Origin: Fibrobacterota bacterium
GTDB lineage: Bacteria; Fibrobacterota; Fibrobacteria; UBA11236
Direction: 5' to 3'
DNA: 32,000 nt
Assembly (NCBI GenBank): GCA_947482115.1
Contig: CANKII010000004.1
Location: 221,630 to 253,629, forward strand
Made by a program: the position numbers and the translations under genes
Notes under the pieces: model-generated
What the model saw: only the letters and a program-made list of their open reading frames with translations
What the model was told of the DNA's origin: nothing
Database searches by the model: none
In this document: in pieces, positions 7,723-27,694 of the stretch
How the letters are laid out: every line of letters starts with the position of its first letter
Numbering within the stretch: position 1 is the stretch's first letter

Positions 7723-8361
7723 TCAGACTGCAGTGTCGGCTTCAATGGCCTGTTCCTGCTTGGCCTTGCATTGAATGCACATCTTGGCAGTGGGTACCGC
7801 TTCTAAACGTGCCTTGGGAATAATCTTTCCACAGCTCTTACATATGCCATAAGTTCCCGCGCGAACCCGATCCAACGCTTCCTCGATGTAGAACAGGTAA
7901 CGGCCTTCGCGGCTGGCCATGTGAAAGGCCTGCTCGCGATCCTGCGTTTCCGTGGCGTGATCCGCCAGATGATAGGCATGGCTGGACAAATCACCCGCAC
8001 CATCCTTGGCGTTGAGGCGCATACTGTTGTCTTCGATGTAATCGAGTTCCTGAATCAGGGTTTCTTTTTTCTCGTTGAGGAGCTTCTCGAAAAATTTGAG
8101 CTCTTCCTTGTTCATGCGCGTGCGCGTATCCGTGGACACTTTGGAATTTCCTTTGGGGTGTTTGGATTGAACCGGTGCCGGACTTTTGGCCGCCGGTTTT
8201 GAAATGACAACAGGTTTGGCCTTGACTGCCGCCTTGGCAATGGGTTTGGCGGCGGGTTTGGCCTTTGCCACAGCCTTCTTAGGAGCCGCTTTTTTCACAG
8301 GCTTTGCCGCGGATTTCACCGAAGCTTTGGGTTTGGAAGCCTTTTTATTCGCCTTTTTCAT
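7723..8361 (-). CDS. DksA/TraR-family C4 zinc-finger protein with a Lys/Ala/Pro-rich (histone H1-like) N-terminal extension
   Basis: The C-terminal part reads DLSSHAYHLADHATETQDRE...YGICKSCGKIIPKARLEAVPTAKMCIQCK, a CxxC-x17-CxxC DksA/TraR finger. The N-terminal 85 or so residues read MKKANKKASKPKASVKSAAKPVKKAAPKKAVAKAKPAAKPIAKAAVKAKP.... The ATG at 8361 is preceded by GGGAAGGA and lies 19 nt after the ileS stop. Confidence 0.85.
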   Translation of the reverse strand: MKKANKKASKPKASVKSAAKPVKKAAPKKAVAKAKPAAKPIAKAAVKAKPVVISKPAAKSPAPVQSKHPKGNSKVSTDTRTRMNKEELKFFEKLLNEKKETLIQELDYIEDNSMRLNAKDGAGDLSSHAYHLADHATETQDREQAFHMASREGRYLFYIEEALDRVRAGTYGICKSCGKIIPKARLEAVPTAKMCIQCKAKQEQAIEADTAV

Positions 8362-8380: not shown

Positions 8381-11300
8381 TTATGCCACGACGTAAATGC
8401 GTGCTTGTTCGCCTTCAACATCCATATCGCAAAAAACCGCGCCCTCACCCGACTCATCAAAGCGGACGGAGGACGCCAAAACCTCGGCGGAAATATAAGT
8501 TAGATGGGCTTCCAGCGCTTGACGAAGCAGGGGTGTTGAACCTTTTAACAAGACGGAAACAGTGTCCGTCACGGCCAGCCCGGCCTCCTTGCGCAAGTTT
8601 TGGATTCGGCTGATGGTTTCCCGGGCCAGCATCTCTAATCGCAAGGCTTCGTCCACCACGGTATCCAGCGCCACCGTCAATTCCGGAGTAGCGGTGACCG
8701 CCAAATCGGGCGATACTTCACGGACAACTTGCAGGTCTTCCGCTGTTAAAGTCACTTCTCCCAAGTCCAAAGGCCGGCCTTCCAGAATGGCTTGGATATC
8801 GTCATGGCCAAGCTGGGCAATCTTGTCGGCCACAGGCTTCATATTTTTGCCCAAACGCGAACCCAAGGTTTTGAAATTGGCTTTGGCTTTATACTTCACG
8901 AAGGAAGACTCATCCAGAGTGACTTCCACGGACTTCACGTTCAGTTCATCGCGGATCAAATCTTCAAAAGAAACCATCCACTTGCGCTGCTCTTCCCCTC
9001 GCACCACGACAATCAATTGCTTTAAGGGCTGGCGATTCTTGATATTCCGTTCGGCGCGCAAGGTTCGACCCAGATTCACAGCCTGACGGGCCAACGCCAT
9101 CTTGGCGTTCAAGGTTTCGTCGAACAGGGCTGGGTCGAAAACAGGGTAATCGCAATGATGAACGGAAACGGTTGTGGCGGATACCGGTTCACGAACCAAG
9201 ATCTGATAAATCTCTTCCGACAAAAACGGAAGAAAGGGCGCGAGAACTTTGGAGAAATCCACAAGGATCCGGTACAACGTGGCATAAGCCCCGTTCTTGT
9301 CCTGATCATTTTCCGATTTCCAGAAACGGCGGCGCGAACGGCGGATGTACCAGTTGGTGAGATCATCCACAAATTCCACCAAGGCAGGAACGACATTATA
9401 AAGCCGATAGGCTTCCATCTCGACTTTAACACGGCTCAACAGCGATTGCAGATCGGAAAGAATCCAGCGGTCGAGTTCATTCTGTGAAACCAAATCCTGA
9501 CCGGGTTTCCAGGTCAGTTGGCCTTTGGATGCATCGGCATTTGCATAAGTGGTAAAGAGCGACAGGGAGTTCCACAACGGTAGCAGCACTGCGCGCACAA
9601 TGTTCTTCACTCCAACTTCGGAAAATTTGAGCTCTTCGCCTTTCACAGCGGCGGAGTCGATCATGAACAACCGCACCGCATCCGCTCCGACACGGTTGAT
9701 CAACTCATTCGGATCGGGATAATTGCGCAAACGCTTGCTCATCTTCTGGCCGTCTTCCGCCAGAATGATGCCGTTCACAATCACGTTCTTCATCGCGGGC
9801 TTTTGGAACAAGGCTGCGGAAAGCACGGTCAGCGTATAGAACCAGCCGCGCGTTTGATCCAAGCCCTCAGCGATGAAATCCGCCGGGAAAGATGCCTCGA
9901 AGACTTCGCGATTCTCGAAAGGATAATGGTTCTGCGCATACGGCATGGAACCGGATTCAAACCAGCAGTCGAGTACTTCGGGCGTGCGCTTGTAGGACTT
10001 GCCTTTGGCATTGAAGGTTTTTTTGTCCGATGTTTTCAGGACGATTTCATCCACGATGTGTTTGTGCAAATCTTCCACGTGAATTCCGGAAAGCGCTTCC
10101 AGTTCTTCGCGGCTGCCCACGCAAATCATGTCGCCGTCTTCTGCGATCCAAACCGGAATACAGGTTCCCCAAAAGCGATTGCGGGAAAGATTCCAGTCGC
10201 GCGCACCATCCAGCCATTTTCCGAAACGTCCATCGCGAATATGTTCCGGCACCCAGCGGATTTGCTGATTGCTGTCGATCATCCATTGCTTCAAAGTTTT
10301 GGTTACTGCGGGCCCTTCGACAGGCTCAGGGACCGCAGTAAGCTCCTTATCCAACGCGAGGAACCAATTCTTCTGCGCTCGATATAGCAGTGGCACATCA
10401 GTACGCCAGCAATGCGGATAGCTATGCTCAAATGTTTCGTGTTTGAAAATCCGGTTCTGGGATTTGAGATGATGGATAATGCTCTTGTCAGCATCCTTCG
10501 CTCCGACCGAAGTCCATTCGGGAACGAGATGCGTGAATTTCCCCTCGGCGTCCAGTGGATCGAAAAGACCCAGACTCTCCTTCATGCCGAGCTGGAAATC
10601 CTCTTCGCCAAAACTCGGTGCGATATGCACGGCACCCGTGCCATCGGAATCGCTGACGAAATCCGCAGCCAGCAAAGTGTATTGCCGTTCGCTCATATAC
10701 GGAGCGTATTCAAACAAAGGCTTGTAACGGCGGCCCAACAAGGCCTTCCCCATTACCTTATCCAACACCGGATCGTTTTCACCGAAATAAGACAACCGTC
10801 GCGACTCGGCGATCCAGTATTTCTTTTCCTGATGCGACACCAGGGTGTATTCCAGATCCTCTTTGATCGCGATGGCGAGGTTGCTCGGCAAAGTCCATGG
10901 CGTCGTCGTCCACACCAGCAGCACTTCGTCGGAACCTTCCAACGGAAAGCTGACGGTGATGGAAGGATCCTGCCGCATGCGATAGCCCTGATTGACTTCG
11001 AAGTTGCTGAGCGACGTCGCGAGCGCGGGGCTGTAGGGTTGAATGCGGTAGCCCTGATAAATGAGGCCCTTGTCGAAACATTGTTTGAACACCCACCACA
11101 CGGATTCCATGAAGGAGAGATCCATGGTTTTGTATTCGTTGTCGAAATCGACCCAGCGGCCCATGCGCGAAACGGTGCGGCGCCATTCCTGCGTGTACTT
11201 CAACACTCCGGCGCGGCAGGCTTCGTTGAAATTCCCGACGCCGTGGTTCTGGATGTCGCGCACGGTGTTCAGGCCGAGTTGATCCTGGATGATGTTTTCG

Positions 11301-11575
11301 ATGGGCAGGCCGTGGCAGTCCCAGCCGAAGCGGCGCTCGACACGGAAACCCTTCATGGTCCAGTAGCGCGGGACAATGTCCTTGATGGTTCCGGCGAGGA
11401 GATGGCCGTAATGCGGAAGCCCGGTCGCAAACGGTGGACCATCATTAAAGACGAAGCTTTTTTCCGCGGGCCGGCGGCTGACGCTTTCGCGAAAAGCATT
11501 ATCCTTTTCCCACAGCGCGAGAATGCGCTCTTCGAGCGAAGGGAACGAGGCGTCGGAATCTATGGGACGGAACAT
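8381..11575 (-). CDS. ileS: isoleucine--tRNA ligase (long, type-2 form, 1064 aa)
   Basis: The HIGH motif is PHYGHLLAG and the KMSKS motif is GQKMSKRLRNYPDP. The WDCHGLP, TTTPWTLPSN and DQTRGWFYT blocks are present. Confidence 0.97.
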   Translation of the reverse strand: MFRPIDSDASFPSLEERILALWEKDNAFRESVSRRPAEKSFVFNDGPPFATGLPHYGHLLAGTIKDIVPRYWTMKGFRVERRFGWDCHGLPIENIIQDQLGLNTVRDIQNHGVGNFNEACRAGVLKYTQEWRRTVSRMGRWVDFDNEYKTMDLSFMESVWWVFKQCFDKGLIYQGYRIQPYSPALATSLSNFEVNQGYRMRQDPSITVSFPLEGSDEVLLVWTTTPWTLPSNLAIAIKEDLEYTLVSHQEKKYWIAESRRLSYFGENDPVLDKVMGKALLGRRYKPLFEYAPYMSERQYTLLAADFVSDSDGTGAVHIAPSFGEEDFQLGMKESLGLFDPLDAEGKFTHLVPEWTSVGAKDADKSIIHHLKSQNRIFKHETFEHSYPHCWRTDVPLLYRAQKNWFLALDKELTAVPEPVEGPAVTKTLKQWMIDSNQQIRWVPEHIRDGRFGKWLDGARDWNLSRNRFWGTCIPVWIAEDGDMICVGSREELEALSGIHVEDLHKHIVDEIVLKTSDKKTFNAKGKSYKRTPEVLDCWFESGSMPYAQNHYPFENREVFEASFPADFIAEGLDQTRGWFYTLTVLSAALFQKPAMKNVIVNGIILAEDGQKMSKRLRNYPDPNELINRVGADAVRLFMIDSAAVKGEELKFSEVGVKNIVRAVLLPLWNSLSLFTTYANADASKGQLTWKPGQDLVSQNELDRWILSDLQSLLSRVKVEMEAYRLYNVVPALVEFVDDLTNWYIRRSRRRFWKSENDQDKNGAYATLYRILVDFSKVLAPFLPFLSEEIYQILVREPVSATTVSVHHCDYPVFDPALFDETLNAKMALARQAVNLGRTLRAERNIKNRQPLKQLIVVVRGEEQRKWMVSFEDLIRDELNVKSVEVTLDESSFVKYKAKANFKTLGSRLGKNMKPVADKIAQLGHDDIQAILEGRPLDLGEVTLTAEDLQVVREVSPDLAVTATPELTVALDTVVDEALRLEMLARETISRIQNLRKEAGLAVTDTVSVLLKGSTPLLRQALEAHLTYISAEVLASSVRFDESGEGAVFCDMDVEGEQARIYVVA
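10303..10341 (+). repeat. palindromic loop-conserved element, copy 1, in frame inside ileS
   Basis: TTACTGCGGGCCCT-TCGACAGGCTC-AGGGACCGCAGTAA has 14-nt arms with one G.A mismatch. It is read on the minus strand as ...LTAVPEPVEGPAVT... of IleRS. Confidence 0.8.
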
Positions 11576-11738: not shown

Positions 11739-12770
11739 ATGAATACGCAAGAAATCAAAAAAGATTTGACTGAAAATGCCTTAAAGTTTTTGACTCAATC
11801 AATCAACGAATTTGACGAAAATCTACAGTTTTCCGTCATCCACTTTTTCTCTTCTATAGAACTTTTTTTTAAGGCTCGATTACTGGATGAACATTGGACT
11901 CTGCTATATGAAAAGCCTGAAGAGGCGCAGAGTGGAAATTTCTTAATGGGCGACTTTAAGTCTGTCACCTTAAGCTCCTCTATCAAAAGGCTTCGAAACA
12001 TTTCCCAGGCAGGCATAACGCAGGCAGAGGAACAATGCTTTCAGAAAATACGACTCCATAGAAATAAGGCGTTGCACTTTTTCCACACATTTCATAGGCC
12101 GGATCTCGCTTCATTAAAGGAGGAGATAATTTCGTTACAATGCCAAGGCTGGCAGTTTTTATATGACCTTCTTCTGAAGAAATGGGATCCGCATTTTTCA
12201 GATTTTCGCGAAAGGGTATATGAATGTCATCATCTAATGCTCGGTCAAAGAAAATATCTGACGAAAAAATTTGAACTGAAGAAAAGCGAGATTGAGTTCG
12301 CTAAAACTTCGGGAATTGAGGTGAATGTATGCAGAATTTGTGGATTTCAGTCGAGCTTGCTTCGTGAAATTTTAGGGCCCCTATTTCAAGGTGATTGTAT
12401 CGTCTGTGAAAAATGCGTGACTTTAATAACGGTCACATGCCCAAGGTGTTCAGGCAAAATTTATAGCTATGAGATGGGAGAGGGTGTTTGCGGTTCTTGC
12501 TCCGAAAAAGTCGATTTGGCCTATATGAAAGAACATCTTGACGAAGATTGCACATCTTTGAGCGATCTCGCAGCAGGAGAAGGTGGGGCTGCGTATTGTT
12601 CACTCTGTGAGTTCCGTGAAGAATGCGTGATTGAAATTCAAGAGGAATATCTTTGTCTAAATTGCCATACCATATTCAAGGATTTTTATCGATGTGGTTC
12701 ATGTTATTCTAGAGTTTCTGGAGAAGATGATTTTAGCGTTATGAATGGGTGTCCTGGCTGCTTTTATTGA
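11739..12770 (+). CDS. hypothetical protein: HEPN-like (DUF4145-like) N-domain with an R-N-x3-H motif, fused to a C-terminal module with eight CxxC pairs
   Basis: A long ORF sits in a visibly AT-rich stretch. The N-terminal helical region contains QKIRLHRNKALHFFH (Rx4H). The C-terminal half has CRIC, CIVC(EKC), CPRC, CGSC, CSLC, CLNC, CGSC and CPGC. I recognise no family for the whole protein. Confidence 0.6.
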   Translation: MNTQEIKKDLTENALKFLTQSINEFDENLQFSVIHFFSSIELFFKARLLDEHWTLLYEKPEEAQSGNFLMGDFKSVTLSSSIKRLRNISQAGITQAEEQCFQKIRLHRNKALHFFHTFHRPDLASLKEEIISLQCQGWQFLYDLLLKKWDPHFSDFRERVYECHHLMLGQRKYLTKKFELKKSEIEFAKTSGIEVNVCRICGFQSSLLREILGPLFQGDCIVCEKCVTLITVTCPRCSGKIYSYEMGEGVCGSCSEKVDLAYMKEHLDEDCTSLSDLAAGEGGAAYCSLCEFREECVIEIQEEYLCLNCHTIFKDFYRCGSCYSRVSGEDDFSVMNGCPGCFY

Positions 12771-12918
12771 TGCAACAACTCAAGATGTTAACATAAGGAA
12801 CAGAAAAACTGTCTCCACTTGGCCAATACCGTTTAAGCCACCATTTCTCTCAAATCCTGCTGAAAAAGCACTGAAAATCCGGCTTGCTCCTTCCATCGAA
12901 TAGGATTACCTTAAATAC

Positions 12919-15169: not shown

Positions 15170-15646
15170 CTATAAAACACCTTCGATACGCAATAATTTC
15201 TTTTTGATATCCAATCCCCCGCTGAACCCGCCCAAACCGCCGTTCGATGCCACCACGCGATGGCAGGGAACAAATAATGGAATGGGATTGGCGCCGCAAG
15301 CCGAACCGACAGCACGGGCCGCACCGGGACTTCCAACCGCCTTGGCGATCTCGGCATAGGTTCGCGTCTTGCCCAACGGAATTTTTTCGATCTCACGCCA
15401 AACCTTGCGTTGAAAATCTGTTCCACCCCGGTTGCCATAGGCAAACTTCGGCAATGATTTTCCTTTGGAAAAGAAATCCTTCAACGCCTTCTCTTGCGAA
15501 CGAAAAGCCGAGGCGTCTTCCACCCGTTCTTTTTTCTTGGGCTGCACCTCTTTCGATTTGAGAAAGTCCAGCGCCACCAAACCCTTGTCATCCGACAACA
15601 GGCGCAAAGGGCCGATGAGTGAATTCACAACTATTGTTTGCCTCAT
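15170..15646 (-). CDS. ogt: methylated-DNA--protein-cysteine methyltransferase
   Basis: FQRKVWREIEKIPLGKTRTYAEIA...NPIPLFVPCHRVV carries the PCHR active site. Its ATG overlaps the rlmN stop as ATGA. Confidence 0.92.
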   Translation of the reverse strand: MRQTIVVNSLIGPLRLLSDDKGLVALDFLKSKEVQPKKKERVEDASAFRSQEKALKDFFSKGKSLPKFAYGNRGGTDFQRKVWREIEKIPLGKTRTYAEIAKAVGSPGAARAVGSACGANPIPLFVPCHRVVASNGGLGGFSGGLDIKKKLLRIEGVL

Positions 15647-16749
15647 GTGACCTCCAAGACCGGACCCTGAGCTTGTCGAAGGGACCGGGACAAAGCCCGA
15701 TTGCCCAATTGACCACAGGCCGCCATCGCATTATCACCTTTGGTGCCGCGAATGCGGCAATACTGACCGGCATCCGACAAGGTTTTGAAAAATTCCGTGA
15801 CTCGTTCTGGCGAAGGGCGAACGTAAGTTCCATCCAATCCCGGATTATAGGGGATGAGATTCACACAGGCATTGAGACCACGAAGATATTCGGCCAGCAT
15901 CAATGCGTGTTCGGGTGCGTCGTTCACGCCTTCAAGCAGCACATATTCCGCAAGAATGAAATCGTCGGGGTGATTCAAGGGCCAGCGCAACAGCGCATCC
16001 TTCAATTCCGACATGGACCACAGGCCATTCACTGGCATGATGGCCGCACGGATTTCGTCATTGGGTGCATTGAGCGACACCGCCAGATGCAAACGCTGCA
16101 GTCTCCCGGATGATTTGTCCGCTCCCACCAATTTTGCCAGTCGCTCAATACCAGTGACATGACCAACGGTGGAAACCGCGATGTTTTTCGCGGCGATGGC
16201 CAAACCGCGTTGATCCGTCAGAATGCGAATAGCATCGGCCACTGCATCGAAATTATCCATCGGCTCGCCCATGCCCATGAACACGATGTTTTCAACCGGT
16301 TCCCGTAATACATGACGTGCCACCATCACCTGCGCCACAATTTCCCCGGCGGTGAGATGACGGACGAATCCCATGCGGGCGGTTTCACAAAAACGGCAGC
16401 CCATTTTGCAACCCACTTGCGAGGATACGCACAACGTCTTGTATTTGCGCATGGGAATCACGACGGTTTCGCTTTCGAGTCCATCATGCAGTCGCAGCAG
16501 AAATTTGAACGTATCTCCATCGCCTTGTTTTCCTGCCAAAGGCGGAAGAGCAAAACTGAAATGTTGTTTCGCGCTTCGAGCCAAGGGCAGGTTCGCTACG
16601 AATTCCGGCAAACTCTCCGGATCAAAAACTCCGTCCCGGTACAATTTCTGGAACACGGCATCGGCGTGAAACACACCCTTGCCCAGTTTGCCATGCAATG
16701 CGGCAAACTTACGACATAATGCATCGTAAGGAAGGCTCAGAATATCCAT
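15643..16749 (-). CDS. rlmN: 23S rRNA/tRNA adenine-C2 methyltransferase RlmN (radical SAM)
   Basis: CVSSQVGCKMGCRFCETA is the CxxxCxxC cluster. NIVFMGMGEP is present, and the C-terminal AACGQL carries the catalytic Cys. The last 13 or so residues (SLRQAQGPVLEVT) are encoded by palindromic element copy 2. Confidence 0.93.
   Translation of the reverse strand: MDILSLPYDALCRKFAALHGKLGKGVFHADAVFQKLYRDGVFDPESLPEFVANLPLARSAKQHFSFALPPLAGKQGDGDTFKFLLRLHDGLESETVVIPMRKYKTLCVSSQVGCKMGCRFCETARMGFVRHLTAGEIVAQVMVARHVLREPVENIVFMGMGEPMDNFDAVADAIRILTDQRGLAIAAKNIAVSTVGHVTGIERLAKLVGADKSSGRLQRLHLAVSLNAPNDEIRAAIMPVNGLWSMSELKDALLRWPLNHPDDFILAEYVLLEGVNDAPEHALMLAEYLRGLNACVNLIPYNPGLDGTYVRPSPERVTEFFKTLSDAGQYCRIRGTKGDNAMAACGQLGNRALSRSLRQAQGPVLEVT
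15660..15688 (-). repeat. palindromic loop-conserved element, copy 2, forming the 3' end of rlmN
   Basis: CCGGACCCT-GAGCTTGTCGA-AGGGACCGG on the plus strand. The 9-bp arms have one central mismatch. The loop is the reverse complement of TCGACAAGCTC. Confidence 0.8.
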
Positions 16750-23129: not shown

Positions 23130-24236
23130 ATGGCTGTGGAGACGTGGAATTCGCCACTCACGGGCAATATGCCCATTCATTTCGGAGATGGCGCCTTGGA
23201 TACCCTTCCCGCCTTGTTGCAGGAGCTTTCCCCGGACAAGGTTTTTCTGGTTTCCGACCCGCATGTTTTTGATTTGTACGGTGCCTTCCTGATTCACCTG
23301 CTTTCCAGCCGCTTTGCCCCCGAAGTGGTGCTCATTCCCGAAGGCGAGAATGAAAAGAAACTTTCCAACCTCGAAGAATTGTGCGAAGAGCTGTTCAATC
23401 GAGGGGCGACCAAGTCCTCAGTAATCGTGAACTTCGGTGGCGGTGTAGTGCTGAATGTCGGCGGCATGGCTGCCAGTTTGATTTATCGCGGCATCCGCTT
23501 CGTGCATGTGCCCACCACTTTGATGGCGCAAAGCGACGTGATTGTTTCCAACAAACAAGGCGTTAATTTTGCGAACGGAAAAAATCGACTCGGTCTTTTT
23601 TCCAAACCCGTGGCAGCTTTCGCTGATCCGCGCTTCTACAACACCGAATTGCCGCGCCAGTTGCGCGCTTCCTTGGTGGAATATTGCAAGAACGCGATTC
23701 TGCTCGGTGGCAAACATTTTGAAACCGCGATGGCATACTTTGAAGCGGGCAATGCGCTGGCTCCCGCCAAGCTGCGCCAGTTGCTGCGCTATTCGCTGGA
23801 ACAGAAATTTGAAATCGCAAAACTGGATCCGACAGAACGCGGCTTCGGCCTCGTCCTGGAATACGGTCATACGGTAGGCCATGCGGTGGAGTTTTTGTCA
23901 CAGGGCCGCGTACTGCATGGTGAAGCCGTGTACCATGGAATGCGAGTAGCCGGAAGACTGGCCAATATTCTCGGGATTTTTCCGGATGCGGAATACAAGA
24001 AGCAAACGTCGCTGTTGAACAAGATTCCCGACATCCAAAGCATTCCTGCGGACATTTCTGTCGGACAGATTTTGCAGGCCGTGCAGCGCGACAACAAGAA
24101 GCGCGACAAGGGGCTGGCGTTCATTCTGATGCAGGCCATTGGCCAGCCGAATCGCCGCGGCGAATCGGTGCTGACGCCGGTGCCGGAAGAGGCCCTGCAA
24201 CAGGTGCTGCTGGAATACCGGGATGCTTTGCTATAG
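23130..24236 (+). CDS. 3-dehydroquinate-synthase-family sugar-phosphate cyclase (EboD-like)
   Basis: FGGGVVLNVGG is the NAD-binding glycine loop. VHVPTTLMAQSDV..SNKQGVNF, EYGHTVGHAVE and LHGEAVYHGM are the metal-binding His motifs. I chose the ATG at 23130 so that it does not overlap the divergent gene. Confidence 0.8.
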   Translation: MAVETWNSPLTGNMPIHFGDGALDTLPALLQELSPDKVFLVSDPHVFDLYGAFLIHLLSSRFAPEVVLIPEGENEKKLSNLEELCEELFNRGATKSSVIVNFGGGVVLNVGGMAASLIYRGIRFVHVPTTLMAQSDVIVSNKQGVNFANGKNRLGLFSKPVAAFADPRFYNTELPRQLRASLVEYCKNAILLGGKHFETAMAYFEAGNALAPAKLRQLLRYSLEQKFEIAKLDPTERGFGLVLEYGHTVGHAVEFLSQGRVLHGEAVYHGMRVAGRLANILGIFPDAEYKKQTSLLNKIPDIQSIPADISVGQILQAVQRDNKKRDKGLAFILMQAIGQPNRRGESVLTPVPEEALQQVLLEYRDALL

Positions 24237-25035
24237 CACGGCATCGCTGCCGGATCGTTTCACCCCTTCACAAATCGCCGAGACCTTGCTTCCCACACCC
24301 TTTCGCGGTGTGGAACTCGCCGTTACTCCCGGGCATTTGCGCCGTGCGAACGATGCCAGTTTCTGGTTGGGCTTTCGCACGGAATTGGAAACACGCGGAC
24401 TGTGCATCCGCAACGTGCAACTCGGCCACCCTTTTCTTCTCGGACCTGTCGCCCACTCCCCCGGCCTCTCTTCGCCGGATCCCGTGGGACGTCAACGCCG
24501 CATCGAAGCCGCATTAATAGCGGCATCCATTGCAGAAAAAGTCGGAAGTCCGTTTCTGACGGTGACGACAGGTTTGCCGGAACGCGCCGGAGATTTTGCG
24601 GTTCAGGAAAAACTGTTTTTCGATTCCCTGTCTGAAATCGTTTCAGGTCGTCCCAAAAAAGTGAAGGTTGCGATTGAACAGGAACCGGAGCATGTCATCC
24701 ATCGCACCGATCAAATGCTCTTTCTCTGCCGCAGCTTTGAGGGCGAAGTGTTCTCCAACTTCGACGTAGGTCACAGCTTCGTGGCCGGTGAAGATCCGGC
24801 GCAATGCATTCGTGAACTGGGTCGCTATCTATCGAACATTCATCTGGAAGACATCAAGGGCCGGGTTCACAAGCATTTGATGTTTGGGGATGGCGACATC
24901 GACTTCCGCGCCTTGTTTGCGGCGTTGAAGGAGATCAGATATCAGGGCGATCTGACGCCAGATCTGTATCCGTTCAAGGATGAACCGGTGAAGGCATTGA
25001 GGGAGTCAGCGGAGTTTTTGGCACGGATGGGGTAG
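24223..25035 (+). CDS. sugar phosphate isomerase/epimerase (xylose-isomerase-like TIM barrel, AP_endonuc_2 family)
   Basis: VAIEQEPEHV, NFDVGHSF, NIHLEDIKG..HKHLMFGDGDIDF and YQGDLTPDLYP fit the family pattern. It overlaps the cyclase gene by 14 nt. Confidence 0.8.
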   Translation: MLCYSTASLPDRFTPSQIAETLLPTPFRGVELAVTPGHLRRANDASFWLGFRTELETRGLCIRNVQLGHPFLLGPVAHSPGLSSPDPVGRQRRIEAALIAASIAEKVGSPFLTVTTGLPERAGDFAVQEKLFFDSLSEIVSGRPKKVKVAIEQEPEHVIHRTDQMLFLCRSFEGEVFSNFDVGHSFVAGEDPAQCIRELGRYLSNIHLEDIKGRVHKHLMFGDGDIDFRALFAALKEIRYQGDLTPDLYPFKDEPVKALRESAEFLARMG

Positions 25036-25064
25036 CCGGTCGTTTCGACAGGCTCAACGACCGG
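25036..25064 (+). repeat. palindromic loop-conserved element, copy 3 (intergenic, upstream of GIY-YIG)
   Basis: CCGGTCGTT-TCGACAGGCTC-AACGACCGG is a perfect 9-bp stem. It starts 1 nt after the TIM-barrel stop. Confidence 0.85.
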
Positions 25065-25123
25065 TCTGTGGAATCTCTCAATGATCAACAAATTCATTGA
25101 AATGACTATTGGATAAATAGCAG

Positions 25124-25468
25124 ATGCCCCATATGTATATACTCGAATGCGCGGACGGTACGTATTACACGGGCAGTACCGTGAACTTACGAGAGCGATT
25201 CTGGCAGCATCAAGACGGGATTGGTGCCAACTATACCGCAAAGCGATTACCTGTGAAATTGGTGTATTGGGAAGAATACCACCGCATTGATGATGTCTTC
25301 GAGCGTGAGAAACAAGTTCAGGGCTGGAGCCATGCGAAAAAGAAAGCGTTGATTGAAACCAACAACAAGGCGCTTCCCGATCTTTCCCGAAACTACATGC
25401 AACACGGTAGACCGGTCATTGAGCCTGTCGAAATGACCGACGAAGACGACACACGAAAGAAAAAATGA
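25124..25468 (+). CDS. GIY-YIG nuclease family protein (COG2827/YhbQ-like small URI-domain protein)
   Basis: MYILECADGTYYTGSTVNLRERFWQHQDG.GANYT...PVKLVYWEEY......EREKQVQGWSHAKKKALI covers the GIY..YTG, R..H and E catalytic blocks. The C-terminal GRPVIEPVEMTD is encoded by element copy 4. The start could also be the ATG at 25133. Confidence 0.85.
   Translation: MPHMYILECADGTYYTGSTVNLRERFWQHQDGIGANYTAKRLPVKLVYWEEYHRIDDVFEREKQVQGWSHAKKKALIETNNKALPDLSRNYMQHGRPVIEPVEMTDEDDTRKKK
25413..25439 (-). repeat. palindromic loop-conserved element, copy 4 (inside the 3' end of the GIY-YIG ORF)
   Basis: CGGTCATT-GAGCCTGTCGA-AATGACCG has an 8-bp stem. It is in the opposite orientation to copy 3. Confidence 0.85.
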
Positions 25469-25863
25469 AAGTCCTCGGCATCCACCACATCGCCATCCAA
25501 ACCACCGACATGGATCGGTCGATCCATTTTTACACAAACATTCTCGGTGCGGAGCTCATCTCACGAAATCCATTCAAGAAGCGGGAGATGGCTTGGCTCA
25601 AGGTCGGAAATATTTCTCTCGAACTGTTCAGCGCACGGCGTGATGAAACACTAAACATATGGAATGATTTCATTCCGGGACCGGTTCACATTGCTTTTCT
25701 CGTGGAAGACCTGGATGTTTTCCTAGCTCATGTGAAAGAACAGGGAGCAACTTTGCATCCGTCCCATCCCGAACCGTTCACACCACCCGTCCTCGGGGCC
25801 GGAAGAATGGTCTATCTTCTCGGTCCTGACGGCGAAGAAGTCGAGATCCGAACAAACGAATAA
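25465..25863 (+). CDS. VOC/glyoxalase-family protein
   Basis: GIHHIAIQTTDMDRSIHFYTNILG...HIAF.VEDLD......G......P........R..Y..GPDGEEVEI fits the family. An ATGA overlap links it to the GIY-YIG stop. Confidence 0.8.
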   Translation: MKVLGIHHIAIQTTDMDRSIHFYTNILGAELISRNPFKKREMAWLKVGNISLELFSARRDETLNIWNDFIPGPVHIAFLVEDLDVFLAHVKEQGATLHPSHPEPFTPPVLGAGRMVYLLGPDGEEVEIRTNE

Positions 25864-25876
25864 ATGAACAACACCG

Positions 25877-25907
25877 ACCGGTCATTGAGCTTGTCGAAAT
25901 GACCGGT
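25877..25907 (-). repeat. palindromic loop-conserved element, copy 5 (intergenic, after the VOC gene)
   Basis: ACCGGTCATT-GAGCTTGTCGA-AATGACCGGT is a perfect 10-bp stem. It is in the same orientation as copy 4. Confidence 0.85.
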
Positions 25908-25909
25908 GA

Positions 25910-27106
<1,197 letters not shown>

Positions 27107-27115
27107 TTTTATTCC

Positions 27116-27694
27116 ATGCCTAAAACAAAAACGATTCATCGCTGTCCCTGGGTGGACTTGAGTAAACCCGATTACGTCGAATACCATGACAAGGAATGGG
27201 GTGTTCCCGTTCATGACGATCTAATCCTGTTTGAATTCCTCACCCTGGAGGCTGCGCAAGCCGGACTCAGTTGGTACACCGTATTGCGCAAGCGGGAGAA
27301 TTACCGCAAAGCCTTTGACGGCTTCGATGTCAAAAAGATCGCGAAGTATGGCGACAAGAAAGTTGCGGAACTTCTCGGCAATGCAGGGATCATTCGCAAT
27401 CGCTTAAAGATTGCAGCGGCGATTAACAACGCACAACGGTTCCTCGAAATCCAAAAAGAATTCGGCAGTTTCGATGCCTACATCTGGAAATTTGTGAACG
27501 GCAAAACCATCGTCTATAAACCCAAAACGATGAAAGATTTCCGCGCCACCAGCCCCGAATCGGATGCGATGAGCAAGGATTTGATCAAGCGGGGCTTCAA
27601 ATTCGTGGGCTCCACGATTTGCTATGCGCATATGCAGGCGACGGGCATGGTGAATGATCACACCGTGGATTGTTTTAGAAAAAAGAAAGTTTAG
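27116..27694 (+). CDS. tag: DNA-3-methyladenine glycosylase I
   Basis: RCPWV......YHDKEWGVPVHDD..LFEFL.LE..QAGLSW.TVL.KRENYR.AF..FD...I, GIIRNRLKI and VDCF match Tag. Confidence 0.92.
   Translation: MPKTKTIHRCPWVDLSKPDYVEYHDKEWGVPVHDDLILFEFLTLEAAQAGLSWYTVLRKRENYRKAFDGFDVKKIAKYGDKKVAELLGNAGIIRNRLKIAAAINNAQRFLEIQKEFGSFDAYIWKFVNGKTIVYKPKTMKDFRATSPESDAMSKDLIKRGFKFVGSTICYAHMQATGMVNDHTVDCFRKKKV

Follow-up and report, generated by a model that had tools for sequence, protein, structure and literature searches.

The Ssn family of nucleases, which was defined by Chenal et al. (Nat Commun 2025; PMC11893778), provides the closest described systems for a hairpin repeat and a small nuclease gene found in a 32-kb stretch of Fibrobacterota DNA (contig CANKII010000004.1), hereafter called the window. 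SsnA of Neisseria meningitidis is a 94-aa protein with a single GIY-YIG domain, which binds the hairpin repeat NTS (CGTCATTCCCGCGMAVGCGGGAATCYRG) and cleaves single-stranded DNA (ssDNA) just upstream of NTS, on one strand only; the reverse strand, duplex DNA and RNA were not acted on, and RNA was not bound (PMC11893778). The stem sequence of NTS and its 5' CGTC were required, the C after the palindrome was essential, and the loop was removable (PMC11893778). The ssnA gene is flanked by NTS copies, of which there are hundreds per genome, about 2% of them in coding sequence, and the SsnA/NTS system modulates natural transformation in Neisseria, which has uptake sequences besides NTS (PMC11893778). 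Related hairpins, termed SRM, stand on the flanks of Ssn homologues in many bacteria, and the likeness of these systems to REP/RAYT was noted by Chenal et al. themselves (PMC11893778).

The window was found to contain five copies of a hairpin with the 11-nt loop TCGACARGCTC and one gene for a small GIY-YIG nuclease. These hairpins are most probably the partner ssDNA motif of this Ssn-like nuclease, a REP-like DNA repeat whose copies are dispersed. Their locations and that of the gene are as follows:

25124..25468, + strand, gene for a single-domain GIY-YIG nuclease, Ssn-like, 114 aa, the presumed hairpin partner
10303..10341, + strand (the strand carrying TCGACAGGCTC), hairpin copy 1, arms TTACTGCGGGCCCT / AGGGACCGCAGTAA with one mismatch
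15660..15688, - strand, hairpin copy 2, CCGGACCCT-GAGCTTGTCGA-AGGGACCGG (+ strand letters)
25036..25064, + strand, hairpin copy 3, CCGGTCGTT-TCGACAGGCTC-AACGACCGG
25413..25439, - strand, hairpin copy 4, CGGTCATT-GAGCCTGTCGA-AATGACCG (+ strand letters)
25877..25907, - strand, hairpin copy 5, ACCGGTCATT-GAGCTTGTCGA-AATGACCGGT (+ strand letters)

An exact search for the loop gave exactly five copies in the window (10317+, 15669-, 25045+, 25421- and 25887-), at the positions that an initial annotation of this DNA had reported. The expected number of exact matches was 0.04, and none of 100 dinucleotide-preserving shuffles of the window reached five. A one-mismatch loop match at position 8080 has no arms and was not counted as a hairpin copy. 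Each of the five loop copies is enclosed by inverted arms, which are 8 to 14 nt long, and the hairpin with the 11-nt loop was predicted for every copy as ssDNA, on either strand (-6.2 to -14.7 kcal/mol, z -1.7 to -4.5). When the arms were read again, the stems CCGGTCGTT/AACGACCGG of copy 3 and (AC)CGGTCATT/AATGACCG(GT) of copies 4 and 5 were as the initial annotation had described them, and the compensatory change from G-C to A-T between these stems was borne out. For copies 1 and 2 it had given the stem GG(G/T)CCCT/AGGG(A/T)CC, the sequence of which is right, with one internal mismatch in each copy; the palindrome of copy 1 is longer than it had stated (39 nt in total, with 14-nt arms).

The GIY-YIG gene, which had been overlooked in that annotation, is bracketed by copies 3 and 4 in opposite loop orientations. 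Copy 3 begins 1 base past the stop codon of a xylose-isomerase-like open reading frame (ORF; 24223-25035), and the GIY-YIG start codon follows 60 nt further downstream. Copy 4, with its loop inverted relative to copy 3, lies within the 3' end of the GIY-YIG ORF, where a tail of 15-20 aa (about 18 codons) runs through the hairpin (RPVIEPVEMTDE...). The protein matched PF01541 as its only Pfam family (residues 2-73, E 2e-15). Residues Y3, Y13, R23, H27 and E60 were invariant in 29 homologues, and N34 was at least 90% conserved. Comparison with gonococcal SsnA showed 37% identity over 86 aa (E 2e-14; hhalign probability 97.8%), and the motif REKQxxxWxxxxKxxLIExNN was common to the two proteins. 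The designation Ssn-like refers to this homology to SsnA; the protein may belong either to CDD cd10448, which defines Ssn, or to cd10456/UPF0213.

More than 1,500 relatives of the window protein were found in databases, and the best 120 of these, from many phyla, were at least 57% identical to it. The N- and C-terminal extensions of the homologues are variable and rich in EPVE, ELVEG, LRQAQ, LSLSK, FDKL, STGSA and STSSA, which are six-frame readings of the TCGACARGCTC loop. The initial annotation had placed the peptides PELVEG, LSLSKG, RQAQG and FDKLR in protein tails, and the tails of the GIY-YIG homologues were indeed full of them, with STGSA and STSSA in addition. Its remark that it knew of no mechanistic description is outdated, as the biochemistry of Ssn-family nucleases and their hairpins has been described since March 2025 (PMC11893778).

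The association of the gene with the hairpin was analyzed in 80 loci, which were retrieved with the protein core only, one genome per species, and came from Bacteroidota, Chloroflexota, Spirochaetota, Fibrobacterota, Cyanobacteria, Verrucomicrobiota, Actinomycetota, Pseudomonadota and other phyla. A general detector, which required a TCGR...CTC loop and no fewer than 5 bp of perfect stem, found a hairpin at most 400 bp from the gene in 78 of the 80 loci, and hairpins were present on both sides of the gene in 48. The hairpin density was 4.47 per kb near the gene versus 0.116 per kb elsewhere and about 0.013 per kb in shuffled window sequence. The exact loop occurred 109 times in the 1.13 Mb of these loci, most occurrences lying no more than a few hundred bases from the gene when the coordinates were inspected, and the stem next to it differed from genome to genome. 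This exact loop, as in the window, stands beside the gene in members of Chloroflexota, Bacteroidota, Verrucomicrobiota, Actinomycetota and Pseudomonadota. Often, whole hairpin clusters were repeated directly on either side of the gene, over lengths of 61-149 nt and with 88-96% identity.

The orientation of the hairpins around the gene was also determined. The nearest upstream hairpin was '-' in 41 loci versus '+' in 16, and the nearest downstream hairpin was '+' in 53 loci versus '-' in 16. The ssnA locus of Neisseria gonorrhoeae was retrieved for comparison (NZ_CP119142.1, 1880219-1883473; locus L084), and eight NTS/SRM-type repeats were found around the gene, six upstream and two downstream, the nearest being '-' upstream and '+' downstream. 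The prevailing hairpin polarity in the 80 loci thus agrees with that of gonococcal NTS-ssnA-NTS when the TCGAC strand is taken as the equivalent of the NTS strand. The record NZ_CP119142.1 is a gonococcal chromosome of 2.17 Mb that is filed as a plasmid, with 17 annotated features.

Covariation was measured in 108 distinct copies from the window and the 80 genomes, which were chosen by the loop only. Stem pairs 1 to 4, counted from the loop, were Watson-Crick in 96, 93, 91 and 92% of the copies, respectively, and at pairs 2 to 4 both sides had changed in 36 to 55 sequences per pair. The covariation score was 0.55, versus 0.18 after shuffling (none of 500 shuffles reached the observed score) and 0.06-0.17 with slid partners. 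The covariation that the initial annotation had proposed from the five window copies holds far beyond the window. G-U pairs were nearly absent (0 to 3 per pair at pairs 1 to 4), which suggests that both strands must stay complementary. Outward of the inner stem the pairing faded and a 3' ACCG was kept on one side, beyond the need for pairing: C was present at alignment column 30 in 90 of the 108 copies, its partner G in 44. An independent sample of 120 metagenome loci, collected by the hairpin, showed the same pairing and covariation, with 21 different 3-bp boxes beside the closing T-A pair, and ACCG was also present in metagenome copies that had not been chosen for it.

On the TCGAC strand, the element is therefore (CGGT)-NNN-T-TCGACARGCTC-A-N'N'N'-ACCG. 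It consists of a closing T-A pair, three freely covarying pairs, the fixed 11-nt loop and the one-sided ACCG 3' of the stem, and was written compactly as (CGGT)NNNT-TCGACARGCTC-ANNNACCG, plus loop variants. These variants, seen in loci without the exact loop, were TCGAGAGCCTC, TCGACTMCGCTC, TCGGCTCCGCTC and long loops built as TCGATAC-(nested hairpin)-TACTC. The initial annotation had argued for selection on a folded structure with sequence-specific loop features rather than on coding content, and the data support this; of the options it had left, a DNA structure fits better than RNA.

Several features of the locus are shared with the Ssn systems. The protein is a small, single-domain GIY-YIG protein with the catalytic residues kept (114 aa, including the repeat-encoded tail, in comparison with 94 aa for SsnA); the hairpin-gene-hairpin layout has the same prevailing polarity; the hairpin repeats are 20-50 nt long and mostly dispersed away from the gene; and, as in NTS, a one-sided C-rich position is conserved right after the palindrome, so that the 3' ACCG recalls the essential C of NTS. 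The two differ in that three of the five window copies lie in coding sequence, versus about 2% of NTS copies, and in that the hosts are mainly Bacteroidota, Chloroflexota and other environmental phyla. The kind of system, an Ssn nuclease with hairpin repeats, has been known since 2025; the hairpin type found here is a different one, with a fixed loop and a variable stem.

The locus was also compared with REP/REPIN elements and their RAYT enzymes. In both cases a single-copy enzyme gene is flanked by its own short palindromes, often as inverted doublets, many further copies are dispersed, and a folded single strand is, or by analogy would here be, what is recognised. However, the enzyme here is a hydrolytic GIY-YIG nuclease, not a Y1/HUH transposase; there is no GTAG or CGTC in the columns 5' of the stem; and it is the loop that is conserved, not the foot of the stem. 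Rickettsia palindromic elements are in-frame insertions in protein-coding genes, about 100-150 bp long and tolerated as extra peptide, and have been described without a nuclease. They resemble the present hairpin as palindromes inserted in frame in a protein gene, but the latter is 27-39 bp long and has another sequence.

The uncharacterised UPF0213/COG2827 proteins, which include BH0048 (PDB 1zg2) and EF2693 (PDB 1ywl) and are related to the Slx1 nuclease domain, are similar to the window protein in size and in the N-terminal motif YILEC.DG..YTG.T, and their structures were its best solved-structure matches (profile E 1e-19, single sequence E 1e-10). However, the REKQxxxW motif, which is present in the window protein and in SsnA, is missing from their C-terminal helix. 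We know of no reported repeat association for these proteins. Among more distant relatives of the window protein, a Methylobacterium homologue (49% identity) was accompanied by long-loop hairpins of the type TCGAGG...CACCTC, and a homologue on plasmid pNL2 of Novosphingobium aromaticivorans (L207; 38% identity) was bracketed by an inverted pair of GCCCCGTG-CTTGA-CACGGGGC at 895-915 and 1287-1307, a hairpin that differs from the TCGR...CTC type and does not match the SRM consensus either. As judged from these sequences, the hairpin type differs between clades of more distant relatives.

Full-text literature searches with the DNA motif returned only unrelated primer- or cloning-like sequences, searches for the loop-encoded peptides gave nothing relevant, and searches for UPF0213, COG2827 and YhbQ gave nothing on repeats. 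The search for GIY-YIG with REP, RAYT, MITE or cruciform also gave nothing relevant.

Several observations weigh against a partnership of the Ssn type. First, the SRM consensus, HGTCWYN(0-2)YYVSBRHN(0-5)WNVSBRGN(0-2)RNCYNB, had no match in the window or, for the 80 loci, in the 400 bp on either side of the gene, while the same regular expression found the eight sites around gonococcal ssnA, which served as the positive control; the window-type hairpin also has no 5' CGTC tag. Second, conservation is reversed in comparison with NTS, as the 11-nt loop is invariant across phyla here and the stem is variable even within one genome. Third, the N-terminal half of the window protein resembles UPF0213 BH0048 at least as much as SsnA: the match of the window protein to structure 1zg2 had E 1e-10, and that of SsnA itself to BH0048 had E 0.15. 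Fourth, the polarity in the window, (+) gene (-), is a minority arrangement that was seen in 6 of the 80 loci. Fifth, the loop class follows the protein tree only weakly, with an identity of 0.696 within a class and 0.674 between classes; although a permutation test reached significance (0 of 2000), host taxonomy is a confounder of this small effect, on which we do not rely, and some loci mix loop classes. Finally, a hydrolytic nuclease alone cannot insert DNA.

By analogy with SsnA and NTS in Neisseria, one strand of the repeat would fold during a single-stranded phase of the DNA (replication, transformation or repair), and the nuclease would bind the folded hairpin in a strand-specific manner and nick the single strand nearby. 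Recombination or uptake of repeat-bearing DNA would thereby be affected, and the repeat itself might be helped to spread. The activity, strand choice, loop-based recognition and biological role of the nuclease are putative. We further infer that the nuclease would recognise the loop and the 3' ACCG rather than the stem sequence, and that the TCGAC strand would be the recognised strand. A broader reading, which we put forward tentatively, is that the window protein belongs to a separate and very widespread Ssn-like branch for which the loop of a folded DNA strand and the 3' ACCG matter and the sequence of the stem does not, with one loop used across many phyla, and that the hairpin is actively mobile, enters essential genes in frame and is the source of the PELVEG, LSLSKG, FDKLR, RQAQG and STGSA peptides in environmental proteomes.

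The occurrence of the hairpin away from the gene was investigated in two further sets of loci. In the 120 hairpin-seeded metagenome loci, the GIY-YIG gene was present in four and absent in 116; in those four, the nearest hairpin was at most about 100 nt from the gene. Further copies occurred at about 0.14 per kb in the metagenome loci, and the copies distant from the gene were mostly intergenic, some lying within long ORFs or ORF tails. In predicted viral contigs from IMG/VR (L209-L328), the hairpin (TTCGACARGCTCANNNACCG) was found in at least 120 loci, with 203 loop matches in 1.1 Mb. No GIY-YIG homologue was found in these loci, and the contigs, which are predicted to be viral, may be phages, prophages or host fragments.

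These data bear on a second explanation, in which the hairpins form a repeat family of their own that another enzyme or recombination spreads, and the GIY-YIG gene is a free-standing selfish gene of the homing type that lands in, or targets, hairpin clusters without servicing them. Homing endonucleases are numerous among GIY-YIG proteins, which would agree with such an origin, as would the viral loci with hairpins and no nuclease gene. The near-identical direct repeats of hairpin clusters that bracket the gene are what would be expected if it had inserted into a cluster already present or recombined with one, and the 59-78% identity of homologues to the window protein across distant phyla suggests horizontal transfer. 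However, no transposase or other candidate enzyme was seen, and tblastn gave one GIY-YIG gene per locus (two in L018). The fixed hairpin polarity around the gene agrees with that of the ssnA locus, and in the Neisseria system the repeat itself is the specific substrate of SsnA (PMC11893778). We consider it improbable that the gene merely visits the clusters; the two explanations are compatible and not mutually exclusive.

The positions of the copies relative to genes were examined next to the proposal of the initial annotation that the element acts as an intercistronic processing, termination or translation signal. Copy 2 encodes the C-terminal tail of an RlmN-like radical SAM ORF, 15643-16749(-) (...SLRQAQGPVLEVT before the stop codon, last residues ...LRQAQGPVLEVT), and lies directly upstream of the GGAGG and ATG of a methylguanine methyltransferase ORF, 15170-15646(-). 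Copy 5 is intergenic, with a glyoxalase-family ORF (stop 25863) on one side and an esterase ORF (start 25931) on the other, and the next ORFs do begin with the ATGs at 25465 and 25931, as had been reported. A hairpin that works in RNA, as a processing site, terminator, mRNA stabiliser or loop-recognised translation signal, would be in keeping with such positions: copies 3 and 5 lie between genes and copy 4 at the 3' end of one, within a run of genes on the same strand, copies 2, 4 and 5 are 15-35 nt ahead of the next start codon, and the stems covary. REP elements stabilise upstream mRNA, and by this parallel a secondary mRNA-stabilising effect of the hairpin may occur.

As the main function of the element, however, an RNA signal is very unlikely. 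Both orientations occur, as the sense strand of the host transcript carries GAG...CGA in three copies and TCG...CTC in two; copy 1 is in frame inside an essential ORF; and almost no G-U pairs were found in the stems of the 108 copies. Rfam gave no hit at gathering score in the window and only chance-level hits at E up to 10, and in seven further loci no hit was at a hairpin, the sole one being an unrelated signal recognition particle RNA in L066. A terminator scan over copies 3 to 5 (24800-26100) found no site at a hairpin, the loop is 11 nt long, and no hairpin has a T-tract. The purine-rich tracts before 25465 and 25931, which had been presented as a feature of the element, resemble by inspection the ordinary ribosome-binding sites of the next genes (for example, GGAG before 25931). 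In addition, SsnA, to which the window protein is homologous, does not bind RNA (PMC11893778).

A double-stranded recognition site, such as an operator or an uptake sequence, for which hairpin formation would be irrelevant, hardly deserves credence: the loop does hold the palindrome TCGA and, in its A variant, AGCT, the inverted arms could take a dimer, and Neisseria carries uptake sequences of its own, but the conserved core is asymmetric (a non-palindromic 11-nt loop and a one-sided ACCG), a nested hairpin stands inside the loop of the long-loop variants, and the symmetric arms vary freely yet stay complementary (21 different 3-bp boxes), which is the signature of a folded strand and not of a dimer site.

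We also analyzed copy 1, which lies within the isoleucyl-tRNA synthetase (IleRS) ORF 8381-11575(-) and is translated in frame as TAVPEPVEGPAVT. The stretch corresponding to copy 1 is a gap in solved IleRS structures and in all nine aligned homologues, and it is therefore an insertion of 39 nt in IleRS. Closer IleRS orthologues were sought and only short fragments of at most 68% identity were found, in which the insertion is visible and its exact borders are not. Contigs L001 and L003 were 100% identical to the window and L002 99.99%, which is too close to inform on the presence or absence of copies.

An unexplained motif that is common in environmental genomes is now tied to a specific small nuclease. 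The partnership of Ssn nucleases with hairpins is thereby extended to a second hairpin type, in phyla where it had not been examined before. If recognition is truly through the loop, these proteins would be ssDNA nucleases with a specificity rule unlike that of SsnA and of interest for ssDNA tools. The repeats also give rise to protein tails that are spurious or altered and to insertions in frame, including that in an aminoacyl-tRNA synthetase, which is relevant to annotation and to the spread of repeats.

The long-loop variants were found at 9900-10300 in L014, 9780-10560 in L030, 9830-9990 in L022, and 931-956 and 1305-1333 in L205. They keep the ends of the loop (TCGATAC ... TACTC; GAGTG ... 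GTATCGA on the other strand) around a nested G+C-rich hairpin and form a two-stem structure with an asymmetric internal loop. On inspection, the sequences did not fit a hammerhead-like core; a kink-turn was also considered and set aside. On the GAG...CGA strand, the loop ends may pair as tandem sheared G-A, with a 5'-YGAR-3' context on both sides, and this idea favours the strand opposite to that indicated by the polarity and the 3' ACCG.

Several minor observations were made on gene number, contigs and neighbouring genes. Two nuclease genes, 10001-10267 and 12634-12891, are present 2.6 kb apart in Aquimarina rubra (L018), and one metagenome-assembled Fibrobacterota genome carries the nuclease gene on two contigs (L031 and L059). 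Contig L003, from a metagenome and of the same organism as the window, starts inside hairpin copy 3 (its positions 1-30; window 25038 onward), which fits an assembly break at the repeat. Genes for DNA repair lie nearby, namely the methylguanine methyltransferase gene at 15170-15646(-), a 3-methyladenine glycosylase gene at 27116-27694(+) and, just past the window, UvrC (L001 18054-19871(-)); no sign of a tie between them and the nuclease was seen, with synteny in other genomes left out of consideration. The IleRS encoded at 8381-11575(-) is of the type nearest to eukaryotic cytoplasmic enzymes, and its best solved match was a cytoplasmic IleRS (E 5.5e-45).

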